A DNA stretch of 64,000 bases from an uncultured Bacteroidota bacterium (GCA_903831265.1 CAIKXD010000068.1:5198-69197), one strand, 5' to 3'. Positions 10,621 to 24,079 are shown, counted from the stretch's first letter. The notes: generated from the sequence alone by a model not told the origin. Made by a program: numbers and translations.

Positions 10621-11190
10621 TATTATTTAACGAGGGGTTTTATTTTAAATTTGATTGATATATCTTTCTCTTAAACGTAAAGCTGTGGGTCGTGTTTTTA
10701 ATCGTTAGCGCTTCGCTTCGTAGTGTAGCAAGTTTAATTTCGCCTGCTGCCGCATAACGATAGCTATCGTTTTCTTGGCTTGTGCTGCAACATTTTGCAG
10801 TTCATATTGCTCAATGCTTTAAAGTATTAATTTTTACTTATTCGTGAAAAGTAATACTTATCATATAGATTTTAAATTAAAATTAAATTACCAACCATAA
10901 CGCTTTACCACCAGCTAGGACGCTGACAGGAGCGGGGTAGAGTGAAATAAATGCATCATACATTTTAATCATTTCAATTTTTTTCTTAAAAAGATGAGTT
11001 GGGGCTTAAAACTTTGTTAAAGTTTGGAACTTTAACAAAGTTAAGTGCATTATTACGCGCGAGGGATTGAGCCTTTGTTTGAGCTCTTTTTGAAGGGTTT
11101 CTTGTGTGTTGCCAAAAAAGCGAGTGGCGAAAGCCCGACCTTTCCTGACAAGGGAAGGACGCGCCCTCCATTTTAATAAATTAATGCTAA
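10621..11190. other. unusually long convergent intergenic spacer with a GC-rich structured segment (about 11051-11170); candidate ncRNA, family unknown
   Basis: 570 nt between the convergent alaS and atpC. Local GC is far above background. Contains a 'ggcgaaagcc' GNRA tetraloop hairpin, a 'cctttcctgacaagggaagg' hairpin, a 16-bp palindrome at 10756-10771 and a 15-bp perfect hairpin at 11010-11042. Confidence 0.3.
11010..11042. repeat. perfect 15-bp inverted repeat aactttgttaaagtt/tgg/aactttaacaaagtt
   Basis: Verified reverse-complement arms with a 3-nt loop. Confidence 0.8.
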
Positions 11191-16873: not shown

Positions 16874-17692
16874 GTGAACAATAGCGAAAAAGCAGAAATG
16901 TCATTTTTAGAGCACCTTGAGGCGCTTAGATGGCACCTTATGCGTGCAGTAATTGCAGTACTTACTTTGGCCATCATTTTATTTTTTTACAGAGAAATAG
17001 TATTTGATAATTTTCTTTTTGCGCCTAAGCATCCCGATTTTTGGACTTATCGCATGCTTTGTTTACTGAGCGATTACCTCGATATGGGTGATGCATTATG
17101 TATTAGAGAATTACCTTTTGAATTGATCAATACAGAACTTTCTGGGCAATTTACAATGCATATTTGGGTTTCGTTTGTGGCAGGTTTTATTTTAGCCGCG
17201 CCCTATGTATTATGGGAAATATGGCGTTTTATAAAGCCAGCTTTGCATGAAAAAGAAAGAAAGTACTCTAAAGGTGTGGTGTTTTTTAGCACACTTTTAT
17301 TTTTTGCAGGTGTGCTTTTTGGTTATTATGTTATTGTTCCTCTATCCATTAACTTTCTTGGAAGTTATCAAGTAAGTGCCGATGTAAAAAATATGATTGC
17401 CATGGATTCATTTGTATCTACGGTAACCACAATTACATTTGCATCGGGCATTGTGTTTGAGTTGCCTATAGTAATTTACTTTCTTACACAAATAGGATTA
17501 ATGACGCCTCAGTTTATGCGCACCTATCGCAAACATGCCATGGTAATTATTTTAATTGTTGCCGCAGTTATTACGCCATCGCCAGATGTTACCTCACAAT
17601 TATTAGTAGCTTTCCCATTATATTTGCTTTATGAATTGAGTATTTTTGTAAGCATGTATGTGGTTAAAAAGGCCGAAAAAGAATTACGCTAA
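16874..17692 (+). CDS. tatC: twin-arginine translocase subunit TatC
   Basis: 'MSFLEHLEALRWHL' TatC N-terminal signature with 6 TM helices. The true start is possibly at 16898. Confidence 0.85.
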   Translation: MNNSEKAEMSFLEHLEALRWHLMRAVIAVLTLAIILFFYREIVFDNFLFAPKHPDFWTYRMLCLLSDYLDMGDALCIRELPFELINTELSGQFTMHIWVSFVAGFILAAPYVLWEIWRFIKPALHEKERKYSKGVVFFSTLLFFAGVLFGYYVIVPLSINFLGSYQVSADVKNMIAMDSFVSTVTTITFASGIVFELPIVIYFLTQIGLMTPQFMRTYRKHAMVIILIVAAVITPSPDVTSQLLVAFPLYLLYELSIFVSMYVVKKAEKELR

Positions 17693-17710: not shown

Positions 17711-18073
17711 ATGTCGCAGAGTCCAGAAGAATTTAATGCTTACCGAAGTAAAATGAATGAACGTATTTTGGGGCAAAACAACAAAGTAATCAATCGTTTT
17801 TTTAATTTAGATACCAATACCTATGCCGAGGGTGCTTTGCCTATAAAAACTAAGGAAATGCTTGGTTTGGTGGCAAGTATGGTATTGCGTTGCGATGATT
17901 GCATTAAATATCATGTTGAAAAATGTTACCATGAAGGAGTAACCGAAGAAGAGATATTTGAAGTATTTTCAATTGCTAATATAGTAGGAGGGAGCATTGT
18001 AATACCGCACTTTAGAAGGGCAGTTGAGTATTGGGATTTGCTGAAAGAGAAAAAAGATGAAGTAATTATTTAA
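17711..18073 (+). CDS. carboxymuconolactone decarboxylase / AhpD-like family protein
   Basis: 120 aa. CxxC-H motif 'CDDCIKYH' of the CMD/AhpD fold. Confidence 0.7.
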   Translation: MSQSPEEFNAYRSKMNERILGQNNKVINRFFNLDTNTYAEGALPIKTKEMLGLVASMVLRCDDCIKYHVEKCYHEGVTEEEIFEVFSIANIVGGSIVIPHFRRAVEYWDLLKEKKDEVII

Positions 18074-18084
18074 TAAAAAGAAAG

Positions 18085-18414
18085 ATGGAAGAGGTAAAAC
18101 CAAGATACGAAAAGCACCTATTTATTTGCACAAACCAAAGAGCCGAAGGTCAGAGAGTTTGTTGTGGCGAAACCCATGGAATGGCATTAACCGCTGCATT
18201 TAAAGAAGCTATTAAAGAAAAAAAGTTACAAATTAAAATGCGCGCCCAAAAGGCTGGATGTTTTGATATATGTGAATTTGGACCCAATGTTATTGTTTAT
18301 CCAGAGGGCGTGTATTATGGTAAAGTTACGCTTGAAGATGTGAATGAAATAGTAGAAGAGCATTTGGTGAATAACAGACCAGTAGCACGTTTACGACTTA
18401 ATTTTACACGATAG
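18085..18414 (+). CDS. thioredoxin-like (2Fe-2S) ferredoxin
   Basis: 109 aa. Cys spacing 'C...CC...C(x3)C' and the 'GPNVIVYPEGVYYGKV' motif of thioredoxin-fold [2Fe-2S] ferredoxins. Confidence 0.7.
   Translation: MEEVKPRYEKHLFICTNQRAEGQRVCCGETHGMALTAAFKEAIKEKKLQIKMRAQKAGCFDICEFGPNVIVYPEGVYYGKVTLEDVNEIVEEHLVNNRPVARLRLNFTR
18381..18408. repeat. left copy of a 28-bp imperfect direct repeat (agtaGcacgtttacgacttAattttac) overlapping the last 10 codons of the ferredoxin gene
   Basis: Matches 23551-23578 at 26 of 28 positions. Confidence 0.75.
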
Positions 18415-18434
18415 TAATACCAATTGTATTTATT

Positions 18435-18445
18435 AAATAGTCCAA
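18435..18445. repeat. inverted copy (aaatagtccaa) of the 'ttggactattt' core of the 60-nt repeat
   Basis: Reverse complement of 18506-18516; also matches window 11-20. Confidence 0.5.
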
Positions 18446-18494
18446 AGCTATTTAATAAATTTACAATGTATAATGCAGATATAACAAAATATAG

Positions 18495-18558
18495 TTCAAT
18501 AAAATTGGACTATTTATTTTGTATAATCGGTATAAAACAATAATGGCAATATCTTTCC
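18495..18558. repeat. second copy of the ~60-nt repeat seen at window 1-58
   Basis: Shares the 'ttcaat..attggactatt..atcggtataaaacaa' blocks. Confidence 0.6.
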
Positions 18559-18741
18559 TTATGCTTTTTATGAACTATTTACATCTAGGAAATAGTGTCT
18601 AACAGGCCTATTTGAAAATTGTTAGCGCATGAGTTGTTGGTTGTTGCAATCTGCAATTACTTTCAGATTCCTGAAATCTTTTAACTTTCAACGCTAAGGT
18701 GACAAAATCTATTTGTGTGTTGGTATTCATAGTTTTTACAT

Positions 18742-19980
18742 TTAAGACAAGAAGTGATAGATAAAATAAATTTCAATTGATGTTTTCAATTGAAATTTAT
18801 TTTTTGCCGAACTAATACTCTTGAAGCTCTTTATCAATAATTTATAAGACTTCTTAAACTCACCGGCCTTTCCAATTGGATTGATCAACAAAAAAAATAA
18901 AATTGGTATTAACCCTAATGTAATCACTTTTAAACCTAAATAGTCCTTGGAAAAAACACCAAGCTCAAGACCCAAATACAGAGTTGAAAAACCAGTTAAA
19001 AAACCAATTACTATTGAGATAAATGCTGATGTCATGATTTGGAATTCAGATATTTTTTGAATTGCAGATATCTGTTGCTCAATCAAACTGAATTCATGTG
19101 ATGAATTTTGAATACCTAGTTTTTTGGTGAGGTAAATAAACTGAGTGCCTTCTGGCTCATTAAATATGTTTTTAATACTTTTAATATATTTTATATCAAT
19201 CAGACTTGTATTTTTTAATCCCTCGTTATAAAACAATAGGTTTTCAATTACTTGTTTGTAAATTAAATTTAATAACTGATTGTAGTTGTGAATGGCTTGA
19301 TCTGCCTCTTCCTTTATCCTTGGATCAACATTATTTGTTAGTGAATTCAGCCTCTTGGCGAAATTCATGGAAAATAGGATATTAACAATGGCAACACCAA
19401 ATACTCCCTTGGATGTTTCTTCTAGAATTTCAGAATTTTGCATAAAATTGGTACTTGCAATTGCACCGGCAACCACACCTCCATATCCTAAAATTTTTCC
19501 GGCATCCGACTTGCTATTGAATCCGGATAATGCTCCAACAAGAATGCCTAAATTAGACCATCCAGCTTTTGTTTTTTCAGCAAGTGCCTGTTTTCTGAGT
19601 TGTTTTGCAGTCTCAATGCGCATTTGAGCAAGTTCAACTGTTCTGTTAAGCATGGTTGTAATAAAAGCAATTTCAATTAAATTATATTCATCAACCGTTA
19701 GGGTTGACTTTTTCGTAAATTCCTCAAAAGACATTATTGAAGACTTTAACAGATGCAATTTATCATCGTAATCAAAGAGATAAGACTGTGATATTGCTTT
19801 GAATGCCCAACCTGCCGAATTATTAAAATCCTTTTTTATTAGTTCTTCACTCAAATCTATCGATTTGCTGAAATTGCCCGATGTGAGCTCAGTTGCACAG
19901 AGTTCCGTAGTGGATCGGTTATCTTTATTTGTATGATTAATTAAAATGTCCTTTAGTAGTCTGTAAGTATTTGTGCTCAT
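18742..19980 (-). CDS. hypothetical membrane protein (Gly-rich central segment, C-terminal TM helices)
   Basis: 412 aa. No recognisable family. 'GILVGALSGF...GYGGVVAGAIAS' glycine-zipper-like segment. Three C-terminal hydrophobic helices. A 17-bp perfect hairpin with a T-run (18763-18803) overlaps the last codons. Confidence 0.4.
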   Translation of the reverse strand: MSTNTYRLLKDILINHTNKDNRSTTELCATELTSGNFSKSIDLSEELIKKDFNNSAGWAFKAISQSYLFDYDDKLHLLKSSIMSFEEFTKKSTLTVDEYNLIEIAFITTMLNRTVELAQMRIETAKQLRKQALAEKTKAGWSNLGILVGALSGFNSKSDAGKILGYGGVVAGAIASTNFMQNSEILEETSKGVFGVAIVNILFSMNFAKRLNSLTNNVDPRIKEEADQAIHNYNQLLNLIYKQVIENLLFYNEGLKNTSLIDIKYIKSIKNIFNEPEGTQFIYLTKKLGIQNSSHEFSLIEQQISAIQKISEFQIMTSAFISIVIGFLTGFSTLYLGLELGVFSKDYLGLKVITLGLIPILFFLLINPIGKAGEFKKSYKLLIKSFKSISSAKNKFQLKTSIEIYFIYHFLS

Positions 19981-20049
19981 TTGAAATTTGTGAATATTAT
20001 ACCGCTGTTTTAGATTGTTTTAGGTCCTGTATATTGCCAAGCGAAGATA

Positions 20050-20634
20050 TTATTTATAATTTTTGTGTATGAAAGGTGTGTCGTAAATAACGCACAACAT
20101 GTCACAATCGCGAGTTACTTCGTTCCCAATTTCACAATCACATGACTTTCTCATGTATCCCGCGATACCCCGAGCAAATGAATGTTCGTTGAAATAAAAG
20201 ATAGGATTTTCTCTCCAACTACCATCACTGTCCTGAGTACTATCCTCCATAACCACAATCATTGGTTTAGCAAAGACTTCTTCGTAGTGTGTTTTATAAT
20301 CATTCTCATACGAGCCTTCCTGTTTTTTTTTAATTTTTTTCTTTGTGATGTAATAGTTCCTTACATCTCCTTTCTTTTTGGCTTGCTCATGGGTATGATC
20401 ATCTGTAAAATTTTGTCCCATATAATGCTCGCCTTTTAAAAGTGTAAAAGTACCATCTTCATAAAATTTAAAATTCTCTGTTAGTCGGTCTCCGCGCTGT
20501 CCACCATTTGCACTGCCTTCCCATTCGCCTTGTATGAGTATTTCAATAGGATTATCTGCAAATTTAGTTTCACCTTTACAACCCGTCAATAAAGTGAATG
20601 AGACGAGCACAAGTATTTTTTGAAAATAGCTCAT
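20050..20634 (-). CDS. hypothetical lipoprotein (Cys-rich C-terminus)
   Basis: Lipobox 'LLTGC' after a signal peptide when started at the Met at 20634. C-terminal 'CDCEIGNEVTRDCDMLC' cluster. The longest ORF extends to 20700. Confidence 0.45.
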   Translation of the reverse strand: MSYFQKILVLVSFTLLTGCKGETKFADNPIEILIQGEWEGSANGGQRGDRLTENFKFYEDGTFTLLKGEHYMGQNFTDDHTHEQAKKKGDVRNYYITKKKIKKKQEGSYENDYKTHYEEVFAKPMIVVMEDSTQDSDGSWRENPIFYFNEHSFARGIAGYMRKSCDCEIGNEVTRDCDMLCVIYDTPFIHKNYK

Positions 20635-20770
20635 ATCATTCCTAAAGTTGATATTTTTAATGGTTGCGATAAAGCTGCGGTTTGGAATAGTTTTTATCAT
20701 ATTAGAAAAATTGATTGGGGTTAAATATTTAACTAATTCGTGTATTGGTTTTTATATTTGGTAAGATTTT

Positions 20771-21139
20771 TTATTTCTGACAAATTTGAGTGGTAAAATC
20801 ACCATCATTTTCATCGCCGTAGGCAGTAATTGACCCATCCTTTGTGCCGCCATCCCAAATAACTTGCATCAAACTTCTTCTACCTGCAATCACATCAATT
20901 GGAAAATACATATCATGATTTAACTTTTCACGTAAATCAATAATACGCCAAACTCTTTTACTCCACATAACATCAGCTTCTCTCAAATAAGTGTATGGAA
21001 TTACCCTACGCTCAATGGTATGTTCTTTCACATAAACACCATCTAAAATATTAGACTAGGCATTTACATTTGAAGATACAACTGCTAAATTTAAACTAAC
21101 TATAGCAGTTAAAATAGTTTTATTGAACAAGGCTTTCAT
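20771..21139 (-). pseudogene. GldN-like N-terminal fragment interrupted by an in-frame TAG
   Basis: ATG at 21139 encodes a 27-aa signal peptide 'MKALFNKTILTAIVSLNLAVVSSNVNA'. An amber codon (21056-21058) follows. The same frame then continues as '...IPYTYLREADVMWSKRVWRIIDLREKLNHDMYFPID', which resembles the conserved N-terminal block of GldN/PorN. Total length ~123 codons against ~300 for GldN. Confidence 0.4.
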
Positions 21140-21160
21140 ATCAAGTAGTTTTGATTTGTA

Positions 21161-22393
21161 TTAACCGTTAACTTTTAGTGTAAGTGTAGGTAAAGTTCTA
21201 ACTGTACCGTTAGGCATTCTCACTTTAATGTCTTCAAAAATTACCCTTCCGTTGTTTTTAACCTTTTGAAGCAAAGTAGTTATTTCTCCAGTAAAATTAT
21301 TGCCAGTGGCAGAAGCTGTTTTAAATTCGCCACCAACGTTTAATGCAACTGTGTAAGAAGCAACAGTAACTCTTAAATCAAAATCAAAGTCCTTCATTAC
21401 TGCTGCAACACCACCAGATGCCAATAGCAAGGCTTTAGTAATTACACCTGATTCTTTACCCCCAACTTTAGCAATTGGATCTGGCAATGGTCTCACACGA
21501 AATTGATAGTTATTTTCTATTTTTTTTAATTCTTGTCCTTGCCTTACAGTCAGGGAGATTGAAAAATCAGTCATATTCTCGGGCGTAACATCATACATAT
21601 CTTTATTGTAACACCTAGATATTTTTCCTCCAGTTACATAAGGAATAAGCTGTTCTGACTTGTAGCCCGGGACTGATATTTTTATAGGATTTGGAATGCC
21701 AAAATATAAAACATTGTTTCGCTCAGTGGCGATTAGTATATCAGGTTTAAATGTGAAAGAACTGATTTTCTTCCAGGATTTACTGCCTTTTGTGGTATAT
21801 AGCCCATCCCTCTTTAAGATTTGTTCTCCAATTTGATCAACAAAACCAGGAACTGAAATGGATATTTTATTTTCCTGCATCATCCATTTCCCTGGTATAT
21901 GTACGATAGTTGAATTAATGGATGTAACGAGCACCAAGTCACCATTACCAAAGAATCTCAACTGATAGTTTACTATCAAATTATCATAGATTCCAGGTAA
22001 ATCCTCCTCGCTCATAGGTTTCAGATTAATCAAGTTATCAATTTTATTTTCTAAATCTTCAGTAATTGCATTTAGATTCAATGATTGATTCCTTGCCTCT
22101 TCCGGGGAGCTCTCCGTATAAGAATGATAATCATTTAAAAGATTTTTTAAGTGTATTATCAAGGTAGTGTACGGATCGATTCCAGTTGGTTTTTTTGTAG
22201 TAATTTCCTTGTATTGAACTTCTAATGTTGTATACCTATTTTCTAATTTTTTAAGCTGTAAATTTGTTTTATCATTCACGCTGTTACATCCGATTGCCAA
22301 GAAGATAAGACAAAATATTAAGCTACTTTTGATTAATGTGCTAATTAAGGGTGTTTTAAATTTAAATTTCTTTGACATAAATTTCTTTTTCAT
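21161..22393 (-). CDS. GldM/PorM-like protein, lipoprotein variant (C-terminal GldM domains)
   Basis: The 'NVLYFGIPNPIKISVPG', 'FRVRPLPDPIAKV' and 'IKVRMPNGTVRTLPTLTLKV' blocks resemble the repeated Ig-like C-terminal domains of GldM. The N-terminus is a lipoprotein-type signal ('FLAIGC') rather than the GldM TM anchor. 410 aa against ~510. Confidence 0.45.
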   Translation of the reverse strand: MKKKFMSKKFKFKTPLISTLIKSSLIFCLIFLAIGCNSVNDKTNLQLKKLENRYTTLEVQYKEITTKKPTGIDPYTTLIIHLKNLLNDYHSYTESSPEEARNQSLNLNAITEDLENKIDNLINLKPMSEEDLPGIYDNLIVNYQLRFFGNGDLVLVTSINSTIVHIPGKWMMQENKISISVPGFVDQIGEQILKRDGLYTTKGSKSWKKISSFTFKPDILIATERNNVLYFGIPNPIKISVPGYKSEQLIPYVTGGKISRCYNKDMYDVTPENMTDFSISLTVRQGQELKKIENNYQFRVRPLPDPIAKVGGKESGVITKALLLASGGVAAVMKDFDFDLRVTVASYTVALNVGGEFKTASATGNNFTGEITTLLQKVKNNGRVIFEDIKVRMPNGTVRTLPTLTLKVNG

Positions 22394-22935
22394 TTTATTT
22401 TGGCTGTTTTAATGATACTCTTAAGCTTGTCATTCATTTTTACCAGTTGGCCATAACGGTAATTTAATTTCAAATTGAATGTTTCATCATACAGGGTAAT
22501 ATTCTCAGGTTTGAACCGCACATTAACGATATTTGAAAAATTTTTCACCAAAGCTTCTGCTTCTTTAATTTGTTTCGGATTTAAACCTTGTTTCATTGTT
22601 GACCAAAGTCCCTTATCAAAATAATGTGTTTTTAATCCTGCCGCGGCAGCATCTAAGTGTTCGACTTTGGCTAAACGAGCTTTCAGTGTCCATTGTGTTT
22701 TACTTAAATCGTAGCTTAATAAGTATATATTTTGGAATTCGCCATAGGGTAAATCTTGAAACCCTTGTATAAATCCATACCTGTAAATGGCATCACTAAA
22801 AATTGGATTAAACAGCCATTCTTCCCAACCAAAACCATGCAACCCCTCGAATGTTTTCTTGTCCGTTGATTTACCTTGCGCTCCCGATGGCTTTTGATAA
22901 CCAAGTGTATTGTATGTAATTCTGGCGTAGTGCAT
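22390..22935 (-). CDS. hypothetical cytoplasmic protein, translationally coupled to the GldM-like gene
   Basis: 181 aa. Its stop TGA overlaps the downstream ATG (ATGA). No TM segment and no recognised family. Confidence 0.45.
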   Translation of the reverse strand: MHYARITYNTLGYQKPSGAQGKSTDKKTFEGLHGFGWEEWLFNPIFSDAIYRYGFIQGFQDLPYGEFQNIYLLSYDLSKTQWTLKARLAKVEHLDAAAAGLKTHYFDKGLWSTMKQGLNPKQIKEAEALVKNFSNIVNVRFKPENITLYDETFNLKLNYRYGQLVKMNDKLKSIIKTAKIK

Positions 22936-23094
22936 TTAAAAATGGATCCTATCAATAAAATAGATTAATTAAGTTTGAGCATATATAATTTCCGCAGGAC
23001 TTAGGTATTTGCTCATAAATTGTAACATATGAATAATTTTCCGATATTTTATCTTTAATAATGTTACAAAGCTAACTCTGAAGTTGTTGAATAA

Positions 23095-23125
23095 TTTGTA
23101 TTTTTGTTCTAAATTAGTACCTTTG
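23095..23125 (+). promoter_or_regulatory. candidate Bacteroidota promoter TTTG-N19-TACCTTTG upstream of the XRE gene
   Basis: TAnnTTTG box at 23118-23125, with a TTG 19 nt upstream. ATG at 23150. Confidence 0.45.
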
Positions 23126-23149
23126 AAATTGTATCATAGAACCTAAATA

Positions 23150-23542
23150 ATGGAAAAAAATTTTAAATCGGTCGCAGATCGCGTAAAAGAAATGAGGCTA
23201 AAAAAAAATTACTCTCAAGATTATATTGCGAAAAAATTAGGTATCAGCCAAAAGGCATACTCAAAAATTGAGAACAACGAAACTCGACTCAATGTAGAAG
23301 CATTACTCTCTATTTCTGAGATATTAGAAATTCCAGTTAATAATTTTTTTGGCGATTCTAAAGCGCCAATGCTTAACGACTTTAGTTCTGGCAGAGACGG
23401 TGATAATGTAATTTATAAGACGATAAATGACAATGCGAAAGAGGATTTATATCAGCAACTTCTAAAAGCTAAGGAAGAAATTATACAAGCTAAAAATAAT
23501 GAAATTGAAACTTTAAAAAAGCAAATAGAAAAAGCAGAATAA
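23150..23542 (+). CDS. XRE-family helix-turn-helix transcriptional regulator with C-terminal coiled coil
   Basis: 'YSQDYIAKKLGISQKAYSKIENNE' is a canonical Cro/C1 HTH. The C-terminal 40 aa are heptad-like. Confidence 0.8.
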   Translation: MEKNFKSVADRVKEMRLKKNYSQDYIAKKLGISQKAYSKIENNETRLNVEALLSISEILEIPVNNFFGDSKAPMLNDFSSGRDGDNVIYKTINDNAKEDLYQQLLKAKEEIIQAKNNEIETLKKQIEKAE

Positions 23543-23550
23543 GTAAGATT

Positions 23551-23578
23551 AGTAACACGTTTACGACTTTATTTTACT
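23551..23578. repeat. right copy of the 28-bp direct repeat (agtaAcacgtttacgacttTattttac)
   Basis: 26/28 identical to 18381-18408. Lies 9 nt after the XRE stop. Confidence 0.75.
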
Positions 23579-23596: not shown

Positions 23597-24079
23597 TTAT
23601 TTTAACACATATCTAACTGTAATTGCTCCATCAAACCACAACAAATTATCGGCTGTAAAATTTAACTCGGGCTTTGCATTAATACCAATATTTAGAGGTA
23701 TCTGTTTGAGCGTATATTCTAATCCCAAAATAGCATCTAAACCTATATTGATGTGTGTGCCTAAATCATTATAAAAAACATTTGCTCTGCCTGCGTTGAT
23801 GAATTTTGCATGCGCACCTGCACCATAATACCAATCAAGTTCATCTACATCAAATGGGTGTCGGTTATTAAACTCATAAAGCACAGTTAAGCCTGGCCCG
23901 TAGTTAAAATTAGCAATTCCTTCAATCATATTTTTAGCATTTAAATAATGCTTGAGTGTAATGCCATAATTATAGCCTGCATTTAAACCAATAGCAGTGC
24001 GATAAAGCTGAGATTGCGCTTCGGCAGCATTATTAATAAGGCAAGCAAATAATAAACAAATTAAGATTTTACTTTTCAT
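23597..24079 (-). CDS. small outer-membrane beta-barrel protein
   Basis: Signal peptide 'LLFACLINNAAEAQ'. Alternating hydrophobic beta-strand pattern with Gly/Asn/Tyr-rich turns. 160 aa. Confidence 0.5.
   Translation of the reverse strand: MKSKILICLLFACLINNAAEAQSQLYRTAIGLNAGYNYGITLKHYLNAKNMIEGIANFNYGPGLTVLYEFNNRHPFDVDELDWYYGAGAHAKFINAGRANVFYNDLGTHINIGLDAILGLEYTLKQIPLNIGINAKPELNFTADNLLWFDGAITVRYVLK

Follow-up and report, generated by a model that had tools for sequence, protein, structure and literature searches.

How can a block of genes lie behind a conserved gene, and differ there from strain to strain, when it encodes no recombinase? This question is raised by a small islet in a 64,000-nucleotide (nt) stretch of DNA from an uncultured Bacteroidota bacterium (GCA_903831265.1, CAIKXD010000068.1:5198-69197), referred to here as the window. 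The islet is located between fdx, which encodes a 2Fe-2S ferredoxin, and OMP160, which encodes a small outer-membrane protein. It ends with a gene for an XRE-family regulator and is bracketed by two copies of the fdx 3' end. Our analysis favors a replacement-type flexible islet of uncultured freshwater Bacteroidota that is anchored by fdx and the XRE module and kept variable by homologous recombination. We assign this explanation a probability of roughly 60%.

The locus is a small, well-resolved example of a hypervariable gene slot in genome-streamlined uncultured freshwater bacteria, without a dedicated mobility gene. Its ingredients are a duplicated target-gene end, a regulator as fixed anchor, and a cargo that is swapped even between ~99%-identical strains.

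A duplicated ferredoxin gene end brackets the islet

A preliminary description of the window reported two 28-nt segments, identical at 26 positions, at the ends of the islet. The repeat is present at that place. However, the consensus string given for it has 27 letters, and the core copies (18381-18407 and 23551-23577; 27-mer AGTAGCACGTTTACGACTTAATTTTAC) match at 25 of 27 positions, position 28 being a mismatch. Extension by 5 nt to the left gives a direct repeat of 18376-18407 and 23546-23577 with 28 matches in 32 positions. The mismatches are G/A, A/T and CC/TT, and the longest run free of them is 14 nt (CACGTTTACGACTT). As described before, the left copy is the end of the ferredoxin gene, codons ~98-108 of 109. 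The right copy was also correctly placed just past the XRE stop codon (23540-23542), although the gap is 8 nt and not 9 nt, and 3 nt for the extended copy. This copy ends 19 nt before the stop codon of the convergent OMP160 gene.

The repeat was searched for on both strands of the window, with up to 3 mismatches allowed and 100 dinucleotide-preserving shuffles as control. The 27-mer has two sites in the 64 kb and none in the shuffles, and the chance expectation is 0. Relatives were collected with a ferredoxin-protein scan of one genome per species, which gave 30 fdx loci; metagenome contigs were added as further cases. Both are designated by L numbers below. Among the 30 loci the repeat is restricted to islets that carry XRE.

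These data bear on the possibility that the repeat matches by chance, or that it is a motif with a regulatory or structural role unrelated to insertion, such as a terminator or operator of XRE, a dif-like Xer site or one half of a diversity-generating retroelement pair. The length of ~28 nt is like that of a dif site, and in relatives the right copy includes the terminator hairpin that now follows XRE. However, the repeat tracks the local fdx sequence of each lineage and extends to 80-165 nt, and the XRE operator is a different sequence located upstream of XRE. A Xer/dif site, of the type used by integrative mobile elements exploiting Xer (IMEX), was rejected; no dyad-symmetric arms were seen by inspection, and the sequence is coding. 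A diversity-generating retroelement was also rejected, as a reverse transcriptase is lacking and the mismatches do not fall specifically at adenines. A chance or motif origin is very improbable, and the comparative data already contradict it.

Empty and occupied sites in related genomes

Empty sites are found in two lineages. In L002, fdx (93% identical to that of the window) is directly followed by OMP160 and nadE, and a single, diverged copy of the tail is present. This is the uninterrupted ferredoxin-OMP-nadE junction with one repeat copy that the preliminary description proposed to look for. The second case is a pair of empty and occupied sites, L005 and L046. Both of their flanks are ~97% identical, L005 lacks the islet, and L005 10304-10468 is present twice in L046. 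This is a polymorphism of presence and absence within one species, and its bounds are exactly those of the repeat. In L003, L005 and L006, other small lipoprotein genes are located between fdx and OMP160, with neither XRE nor the repeat.

The occupied sites share one layout, fdx followed by cargo, XRE and a copy of the fdx tail, which is found in the window, L057, L001, L049/L031 and L045-47/L068/L069. In L001, fdx is 94% identical to that of the window, and the cargo encodes a DUF2715-like outer-membrane protein and proteins of 161 and 157 amino acids (aa). The same XRE gene follows, and then a perfect 35/35-nt copy of the fdx tail of L001 itself. L049 and L031 are conspecific with the window (flanks 95-98% identical) and contain L001-type cargo. 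Their repeat is ~80 nt long and spans the fdx stop codon and the terminator hairpin. The XRE proteins of L001, L031 and L049 are 98% identical to that of the window. In the L046 type (L045-47, L068 and L069) XRE is 83% identical at the protein level, the cargo is yet another one, and the repeat consists of 130-165 nt of fdx tail and downstream DNA. Among the 30 species-level loci, the tail duplication is found in L001 alone, and no larger insertion is flanked by one. No empty site was found in the window's own strain cluster, in which all contigs with an identical OMP160 protein carry XRE.

The genes to the right of the insertion differ between lineages. They are OMP160 in the window, a gene for a 155-aa lipoprotein in L001, and a 169-aa gene and TRL genes in L046. 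To the right of the insertion point, these lineages have nothing but the tail copy in common. The right-hand joins differ as well. In the window type, the XRE stop codon and 3 nt are joined to fdx codon ~98, whereas in the L046 type the stop codon and 85 nt are joined to a point in fdx 12 nt further 3'.

Comparison with the relatives shows that the 28-mer is what erosion has left of a longer duplication, which comprised the fdx tail, the stop codon and the terminator. The insertion with duplication of the target end proposed in the preliminary description thus holds as an insertion/deletion polymorphism bounded by the duplication, but the 28-mer is not the full repeat. The repeat measures 32 nt in the window, 35 nt in L001, ~80 nt in L049/L031 and 130-165 nt in the L046 type. 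Over 36 nt, the left copy of the window is identical to that of L049, which runs on through the stop codon and the terminator hairpin. In the window, the distal part of the left repeat is replaced by 160 nt (18406-18565) that include a palindromic element. The right copy is shortened by a deletion of ~137 nt, and the stop codon and terminator, both still present in L031/L049, are gone. As it has decayed to 28/32 matches with a perfect core of 14 nt, the repeat of the window is best regarded as a relic. The right copies of L001, L031 and L049 encode ..NFAKPV* or ..NFARP* followed by a hairpin. Since they resemble the end of the intact L002 gene (..NFKKP*), the right copy is likely the original fdx 3' end.

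Cargo exchange beside a constant XRE module and constant repeats

At least four types of cargo occur on contigs that share a 100% identical XRE protein with the window. The first is that of the window. The second, in L057/L058, which are 98.9% identical to the window, lacks 19990-22339 (ORF216, the GldN stub and most of ORF410), which is replaced by 304 nt. The third is the L001-type cargo. The fourth, in L060/L062, combines a gene of >615 aa with an ORF181 allele that has diverged (68% nucleotide identity). In every cargo comparison (L001, L031, L060/L062, L032 and L033), homology resumes at 23092-23105, the start of the XRE operator. L046-type islets contain a 20-aa stub of the L001-type ORF157 beside XRE, a trace of an earlier cargo replacement. 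In addition, metagenome contigs tend to end at ~18532 and at ~22941-23011, as is expected at islet borders where the population is heterogeneous. The DNA between the repeats does not behave as one coherent mobile unit, with the XRE module and the repeats constant and the cargo swapped.

The gene at the left border does not follow its surroundings either. We calculated the share of same-amino-acid codons that differ between the window and L001. This synonymous figure is 14.6% for fdx and 11.9% for XRE, compared with 27-34% for tatC and CMD on the left and 28-50% for OMP160, nadE, OMP268, gldB and gldC on the right. In 90-nt windows, fdx is 92-99% identical to that of L001, while the L001 flank is ~83% identical. 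Compared with the conspecific L049 the relation is reversed, as fdx is 73-90% identical and the flank ~98%. The switch in identity is near 18017, the boundary of CMD and fdx. These differences indicate that fdx and XRE were exchanged more recently than the surrounding genome, and that fdx, which is outside the repeats, is transferred together with the islet. The idea of a mobile element as a unit has to be modified accordingly, although movement of the islet in trans is retained below as an alternative.

A separate observation concerns tatC. Within it, ~180 nt of the window (17207-17386) are 98.9% identical to L001, and the rest of the flank is ~80-86% identical. This block is a separate short recombination tract.

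Mobility genes, composition and the possibility of movement in trans

Family searches bore out the earlier statement that the islet contains no integrase or transposase. No recombinase domain was found in the cargo of the window, L001 or L046 variants with Pfam, NCBIfam and PADLOC (L049 has L001-type cargo). None of at least five islet variants at the locus encodes a recombinase, in agreement with precomputed Pfam gene tables. Across the 64-kb window, no integrase or transposase was seen among open reading frames (ORFs) of at least 150 aa, read by eye. The region contains no tRNA genes and no Rfam matches. Neither the XRE protein nor the degenerate repeat matched anything in scans of viral contigs, and blastn searches of phage and plasmid collections with the islet were negative as well. 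A promoter and terminator scan was uninformative, with counts equal to those in shuffles.

The composition of the islet is native-like. A comparison of GC content and tetranucleotide usage with the flanks had been proposed, and it gave no sign of foreign DNA. The GC content is 32.3%, versus 34.8% in the rest of the window, and GC at third codon positions is like that of the flanks. In tetranucleotide usage, 23% of windows of the same size deviate at least as much as the islet.

Cis-mobilizable elements (CIMEs) derive from integrative and conjugative elements (ICEs) or integrative and mobilizable elements (IMEs), for example at the fda locus of Streptococcus thermophilus (Guedon et al., 2017; PMC5704250). 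By analogy, the islet could be a decayed integrative element that has lost its integrase, retains functional attL and attR sites in the fdx 3' end and is moved in trans by the integrase of a related element located elsewhere in the genome or the community. Like CIMEs, it has direct repeats at its ends, these take in the 3' end of a protein-coding target gene, and the gene is restored. No integration or transfer genes are present, and the integrase is absent from all variants, as the definition of CIMEs requires (PMC5704250). The cargo is variable, and relatives contain empty sites. The L001 copies are perfect over 35 nt, and two different joins lie no more than 12 nt apart in fdx. Finally, the islet carries an XRE-family regulator, and XRE-type repressors are typical regulators of integrative elements, an example being ImmR of ICEBs1.

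Unlike in CIMEs, the repeat length (32-165 nt) and the join position vary by lineage. The cargo varies without regard to XRE and the repeats, and the target gene co-transfers although it is outside the att sites. Exchange between att sites predicts neither. The right copy in the window is decayed and truncated. Neither viral contigs and phage and plasmid collections nor the 30 fdx loci yielded an integrase-bearing element directed at this target, in a search that was not exhaustive and had no complete genomes to draw on. We therefore consider it unlikely that the islet is a CIME-like element. The broader class of site-specific integrative islands, IMEs and ICEs shares with the islet repeats at the 3' end of a conserved gene, an intact gene and single-copy empty sites. 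It differs in that the islet encodes no tyrosine, serine or DDE recombinase and that its composition is not foreign, foreign composition being a supportive feature of this class and not a strictly defining one.

Homologous recombination as the agent of variation

In the explanation we favor, an XRE-regulated cassette would have been placed at the fdx 3' end in a founding event that duplicated the fdx tail and terminator. The right copy would be the original gene end, and the left copy would complete the working fdx. The islet itself encodes no recombinase, and at present it would be kept variable and spread between strains and related species by homologous recombination. The left homology arm would be fdx. 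The right arm would be the XRE module for cargo swaps, or the tail and terminator copy for entry into an empty site. Cargo between these anchors would be repeatedly replaced, deleted or captured from elsewhere. With long repeats such as the 80-165 nt of the relatives, recombination between the copies could delete the islet precisely and restore the empty site.

Such a system resembles the replacement flexible genomic islands of aquatic bacteria (Lopez-Perez, Martin-Cuadrado and Rodriguez-Valera, 2014; PMC4033161). When these are exchanged by homologous recombination, anomalous and mostly synonymous divergence marks their boundaries (PMC4033161). In both cases the locus is shared by all strains and its gene content differs, mobility genes are lacking and the composition is native-like. 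The cargo of such islands is enriched in envelope and exposed proteins, and that of the islet includes proteins of this kind, although most of it has no known family. Divergence changes at the boundary, metagenome assemblies break at the borders, and homologous recombination in conserved flanks would account for the exchange. However, the islet is very small (2.5-5 kb), and one of its anchors, the XRE module, is itself inserted DNA. It is also bracketed by a duplication of the target-gene 3' end and has true empty sites, which are more typical of additive islands.

Several points weigh against exchange by homologous recombination as the whole explanation. The right joins of the window type and the L046 type differ, and yet just 12 nt of fdx separate them. 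A site-specific recombinase would give this outcome, and a pure scar model needs extra small deletions or coincidence. The identity of the L001 copies at 35 of 35 positions suggests a recent event. An arm of 32-35 nt is marginal for RecA-dependent recombination. The comparison was made without complete genomes, and a recombinase acting in trans is possible. Neither an excision product nor a transfer event was seen directly.

The founding event could have been site-specific integration with a recombinase that was lost or acted in trans, an illegitimate join on one side only, or the erosion of an additional copy of fdx. The last two do without a site-specific recombinase. In the first of them, a fragment consisting of CMD, fdx, terminator, cargo and XRE would have entered by homology in fdx or CMD on the left and been joined by illegitimate recombination at a microhomology on the right, which is homology-facilitated illegitimate recombination (HFIR). 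In the other, a second fdx copy would have been eroded to its tail. The repeat duplication would be a by-product in both. HFIR is an established route for foreign DNA in natural transformation. Reportedly treated by de Vries and Wackernagel in 2002, it is known from transformation experiments in the laboratory with Acinetobacter, Streptococcus and Pseudomonas. Its expected outcome is similar to the architecture seen here, as a one-sided homologous anchor and a microhomology join would leave the donor's gene copy, then foreign DNA and then the resident copy in truncated form, all without an integrase. In the present case it is deduced from this architecture. The term appears in PMC8116780 and PMC5312590.

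Microhomologies are found by both types of join, GAATAA at the XRE stop codon and at fdx codons VNN in the window type and TAGAAA in the L046 type, but they are short and AT-rich and could be due to chance. The 3' extent of the repeat varies as if it ran to the limit of homology between donor and recipient. In its non-coding part, the right copy of L046 is closer to the empty-site allele of L005 than the left copy of L046 is. The co-transfer of fdx and the failure to find an integrase-bearing relative in the collections named above also agree with a founding step of this kind. However, it needs a donor lineage in which cargo and XRE are native downstream of fdx, and none was found. The joins 12 nt apart would require two events at nearly one place or later small deletions, and natural competence of these bacteria is presupposed. 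We consider a founding step by HFIR or erosion possible, if on balance not the likelier course. It concerns the founding step only and is compatible with later variation by homologous recombination, as in the explanation we favor.

A more far-reaching proposal is that the islet belongs to a family of portable, integrase-less islets in streamlined freshwater Bacteroidota. Each would bring its own arms, with a complete fdx allele as the left one and a copy of the fdx tail and terminator as the right one. RecA-dependent double crossover would allow them to home into fdx of related species whatever lies downstream, delivering a rapidly exchangeable surface-protein cassette controlled by XRE and the PUA-like protein. 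Alternatively, a trans-acting recombination system would recognize the fdx tail. We put this forward as speculative and rather improbable. If a gene tail does act as a portable homology arm, it would be a simple general route by which integrase-free islets spread across species boundaries.

Genes of the islet

All cargo genes are on the minus strand. The features of the islet and its borders are listed in Table 1.

Table 1. Position of the islet features in the window
Feature	Position	Strand	Remarks
fdx, thioredoxin-like 2Fe-2S ferredoxin	18085-18414	+	Target gene and putative left recombination anchor; Pfam Suc_Fer-like above cutoff, NCBIfam 2Fe-2S ferredoxin below cutoff
Left repeat copy	18376-18407	+	Codons ~98-108 of 109 of fdx
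Palindromic element, 117 nt	18417-18533		Like miniature inverted-repeat transposable elements (MITE) or repetitive extragenic palindromes (REP); inverted arms 18417-18455 and 18495-18533
Conserved left-end segment of islet	18566-18629	+	73% identical to L049 1481-1544, directly after the L049 left repeat, despite different cargo
ORF412, membrane protein, no known family	18742-19980	-	Hydrophobic C-terminal segments; no Pfam or PADLOC match
Strain-variable 2.35-kb segment	19990-22339	-	ORF216, GldN pseudogene and most of ORF410; blastn breakpoints
ORF216, predicted lipoprotein, no known family	20050-20700	-	Lipobox-like LLTGC motif; no family matches
GldN pseudogene	20771-21139	-	27-aa signal-peptide ORF 21056-21139 and 86-aa fragment 20771-21031
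ORF410, chimeric lipoprotein	21161-22393	-	Novel N-terminal ~215 aa with lipoprotein signal; C-terminal half corresponds to GldM domains 3-4
ORF181, stand-alone PUA-like (ASCH/EVE/YTH-like) domain protein	22390-22935	-	First gene of cargo operon; divergent from XRE; 4-nt overlap with ORF410 start
XRE promoter/operator	23092-23149	+	GTTCTA-N25-TAGAAC with TTAGTAC-type repeats; left edge of constant XRE module
XRE-family helix-turn-helix (HTH) regulator, 130 aa	23150-23542	+	Pfam HTH_3; constant right-end gene of every islet variant at the locus
Right repeat copy	23546-23577	+	Non-coding; probable relic of original fdx 3' end
OMP160, small outer-membrane beta-barrel	23597-24079	-	First gene of conserved right flank OMP160-nadE-OMP268-gldB-gldC

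The gene content is as described in the preliminary description, except for the pair called GldM-like and GldN-like. The gene order is that of gldM-gldN in the core of gliding and the type IX secretion system (T9SS), and the C-terminal half of ORF410 and the 86-aa ORF match GldM and GldN, respectively. However, the only Pfam matches of ORF410 are GldM_3rd and GldM_4th. The transmembrane helix and domains 1-2 of GldM are missing. Residues ~215-410 are 65-70% identical to the C-terminal half of the genuine 555-aa GldM of related bacteria. The 86-aa ORF is a pseudogene fragment that aligns to residues ~42-112 of the 280 in GldN, ~70 residues, and the signal peptide is encoded in a separate ORF. 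The pair is a captured partial paralogue of the junction of the gldM 3' end and the gldN 5' end, with a new lipoprotein N-terminus fused to it. The 98.9%-identical strain, in which ORF412 is kept in a 402-aa form (L057), lacks the segment; ORF412 is also present in L058. These captured gene fragments correct the earlier reading of the cargo as an accessory envelope system linked to gliding or T9SS.

Most cargo genes are without a known family. The envelope-type proteins encoded in the cargo and in related XRE modules include the DUF2715-like outer-membrane protein, lipoproteins, a membrane protein and T9SS-sorted proteins. The cargo is most likely a regulated, strain-variable surface-protein cassette. 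In the PADLOC search, the HTH domain of XRE alone was matched, to generic controller and HTH models, and no known defence system could be assigned.

The XRE module and its wider family

The islet highlights a recurrent, uncharacterized module of an XRE regulator and a PUA-like protein upstream of secreted or surface proteins. The operator motif is conserved upstream of all members of this XRE family. A divergent pair of XRE and a small protein recurs. The window, L060, L052/L032 and the P0007 context have the PUA-like ORF181 as the small protein. In L001, L049 and L031 the divergent partner is ORF157, of which the L046 type keeps a stub; sequence comparison revealed no link between the ORF157 family and ORF181. 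The genes that follow the pair encode envelope or secreted proteins, such as the beta-helix protein of L052. A 1432-aa protein with PKD and Por_Secre_tail domains is translationally coupled to the ORF181 homologue of the P0007 context. In L050, a 743-aa T9SS-sorted protein adjoins XRE, and no ORF181 homologue is present there.

The ORF181 family has 553 relatives, some of which are fused to HNH nucleases. They are repeatedly divergent from this XRE family and upstream of large secreted or T9SS-sorted proteins. The fold and the HNH-fused relatives hint that ORF181 may sense modified nucleic acid. A single-sequence AlphaFold2 model of ORF181 was poor, with a predicted local distance difference test (pLDDT) score of 58.

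So far, the tail duplication is found at the fdx locus only. Flanking repeats were absent from the other loci with XRE homologues compared, L050, where XRE is by aconitase, and L034/L035, where it is by a signal recognition particle (SRP) RNA gene and the contigs are short, which bears on the lack of a detectable repeat. In L052, the XRE homologue adjoins a peptidyl-prolyl isomerase gene and is too close to the contig end for a comparison of repeats. The XRE homologues of L034 (404-875) and L035 (1285-1755), with 57% protein identity, end no more than 6 nt from the 3' end of the SRP RNA gene (Rfam RF04183, 68-69 bits), which is convergent with them. Here too, a member of this XRE family abuts the 3' end of a conserved gene.

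Two further contigs contain members of the family. In L072 (1-1045), a frameshifted L046-type XRE and the ORF157 stub are located between unrelated GC-rich sequences, and no fdx tail is found downstream. The contig represents either another genomic context for the XRE module or a chimeric assembly. L033 encodes an XRE homologue that is 67% identical (12-1583). The same contig contains a fragment from the C-terminal part of a large serine recombinase (Pfam Recombinase and Zn_ribbon_recom) and a gene of the size of an IS30-like transposase, the latter recognized by eye. Both are 4-5 kb from XRE, beyond glycosyltransferase-like and asparagine-synthase-like genes.

The palindromic element

The palindromic element at the left end of the islet occurs elsewhere and has the look of a mobile repeat. 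A second copy (1-71/84; 92% identical) is found just downstream of atpC in the 98.9%-identical L057, a place at which the window has none, and a diverged copy is located upstream of tatC in L004. Downstream of atpC, the window contains a GC-rich, structured-looking stretch at 11100-11170 (gcgagtggcgaaagcccgacctttcctgacaagggaaggacgcgccctcc) that has no Rfam match. In L057, the palindromic element takes the place of this stretch, directly upstream of the conserved sequence that follows atpC.

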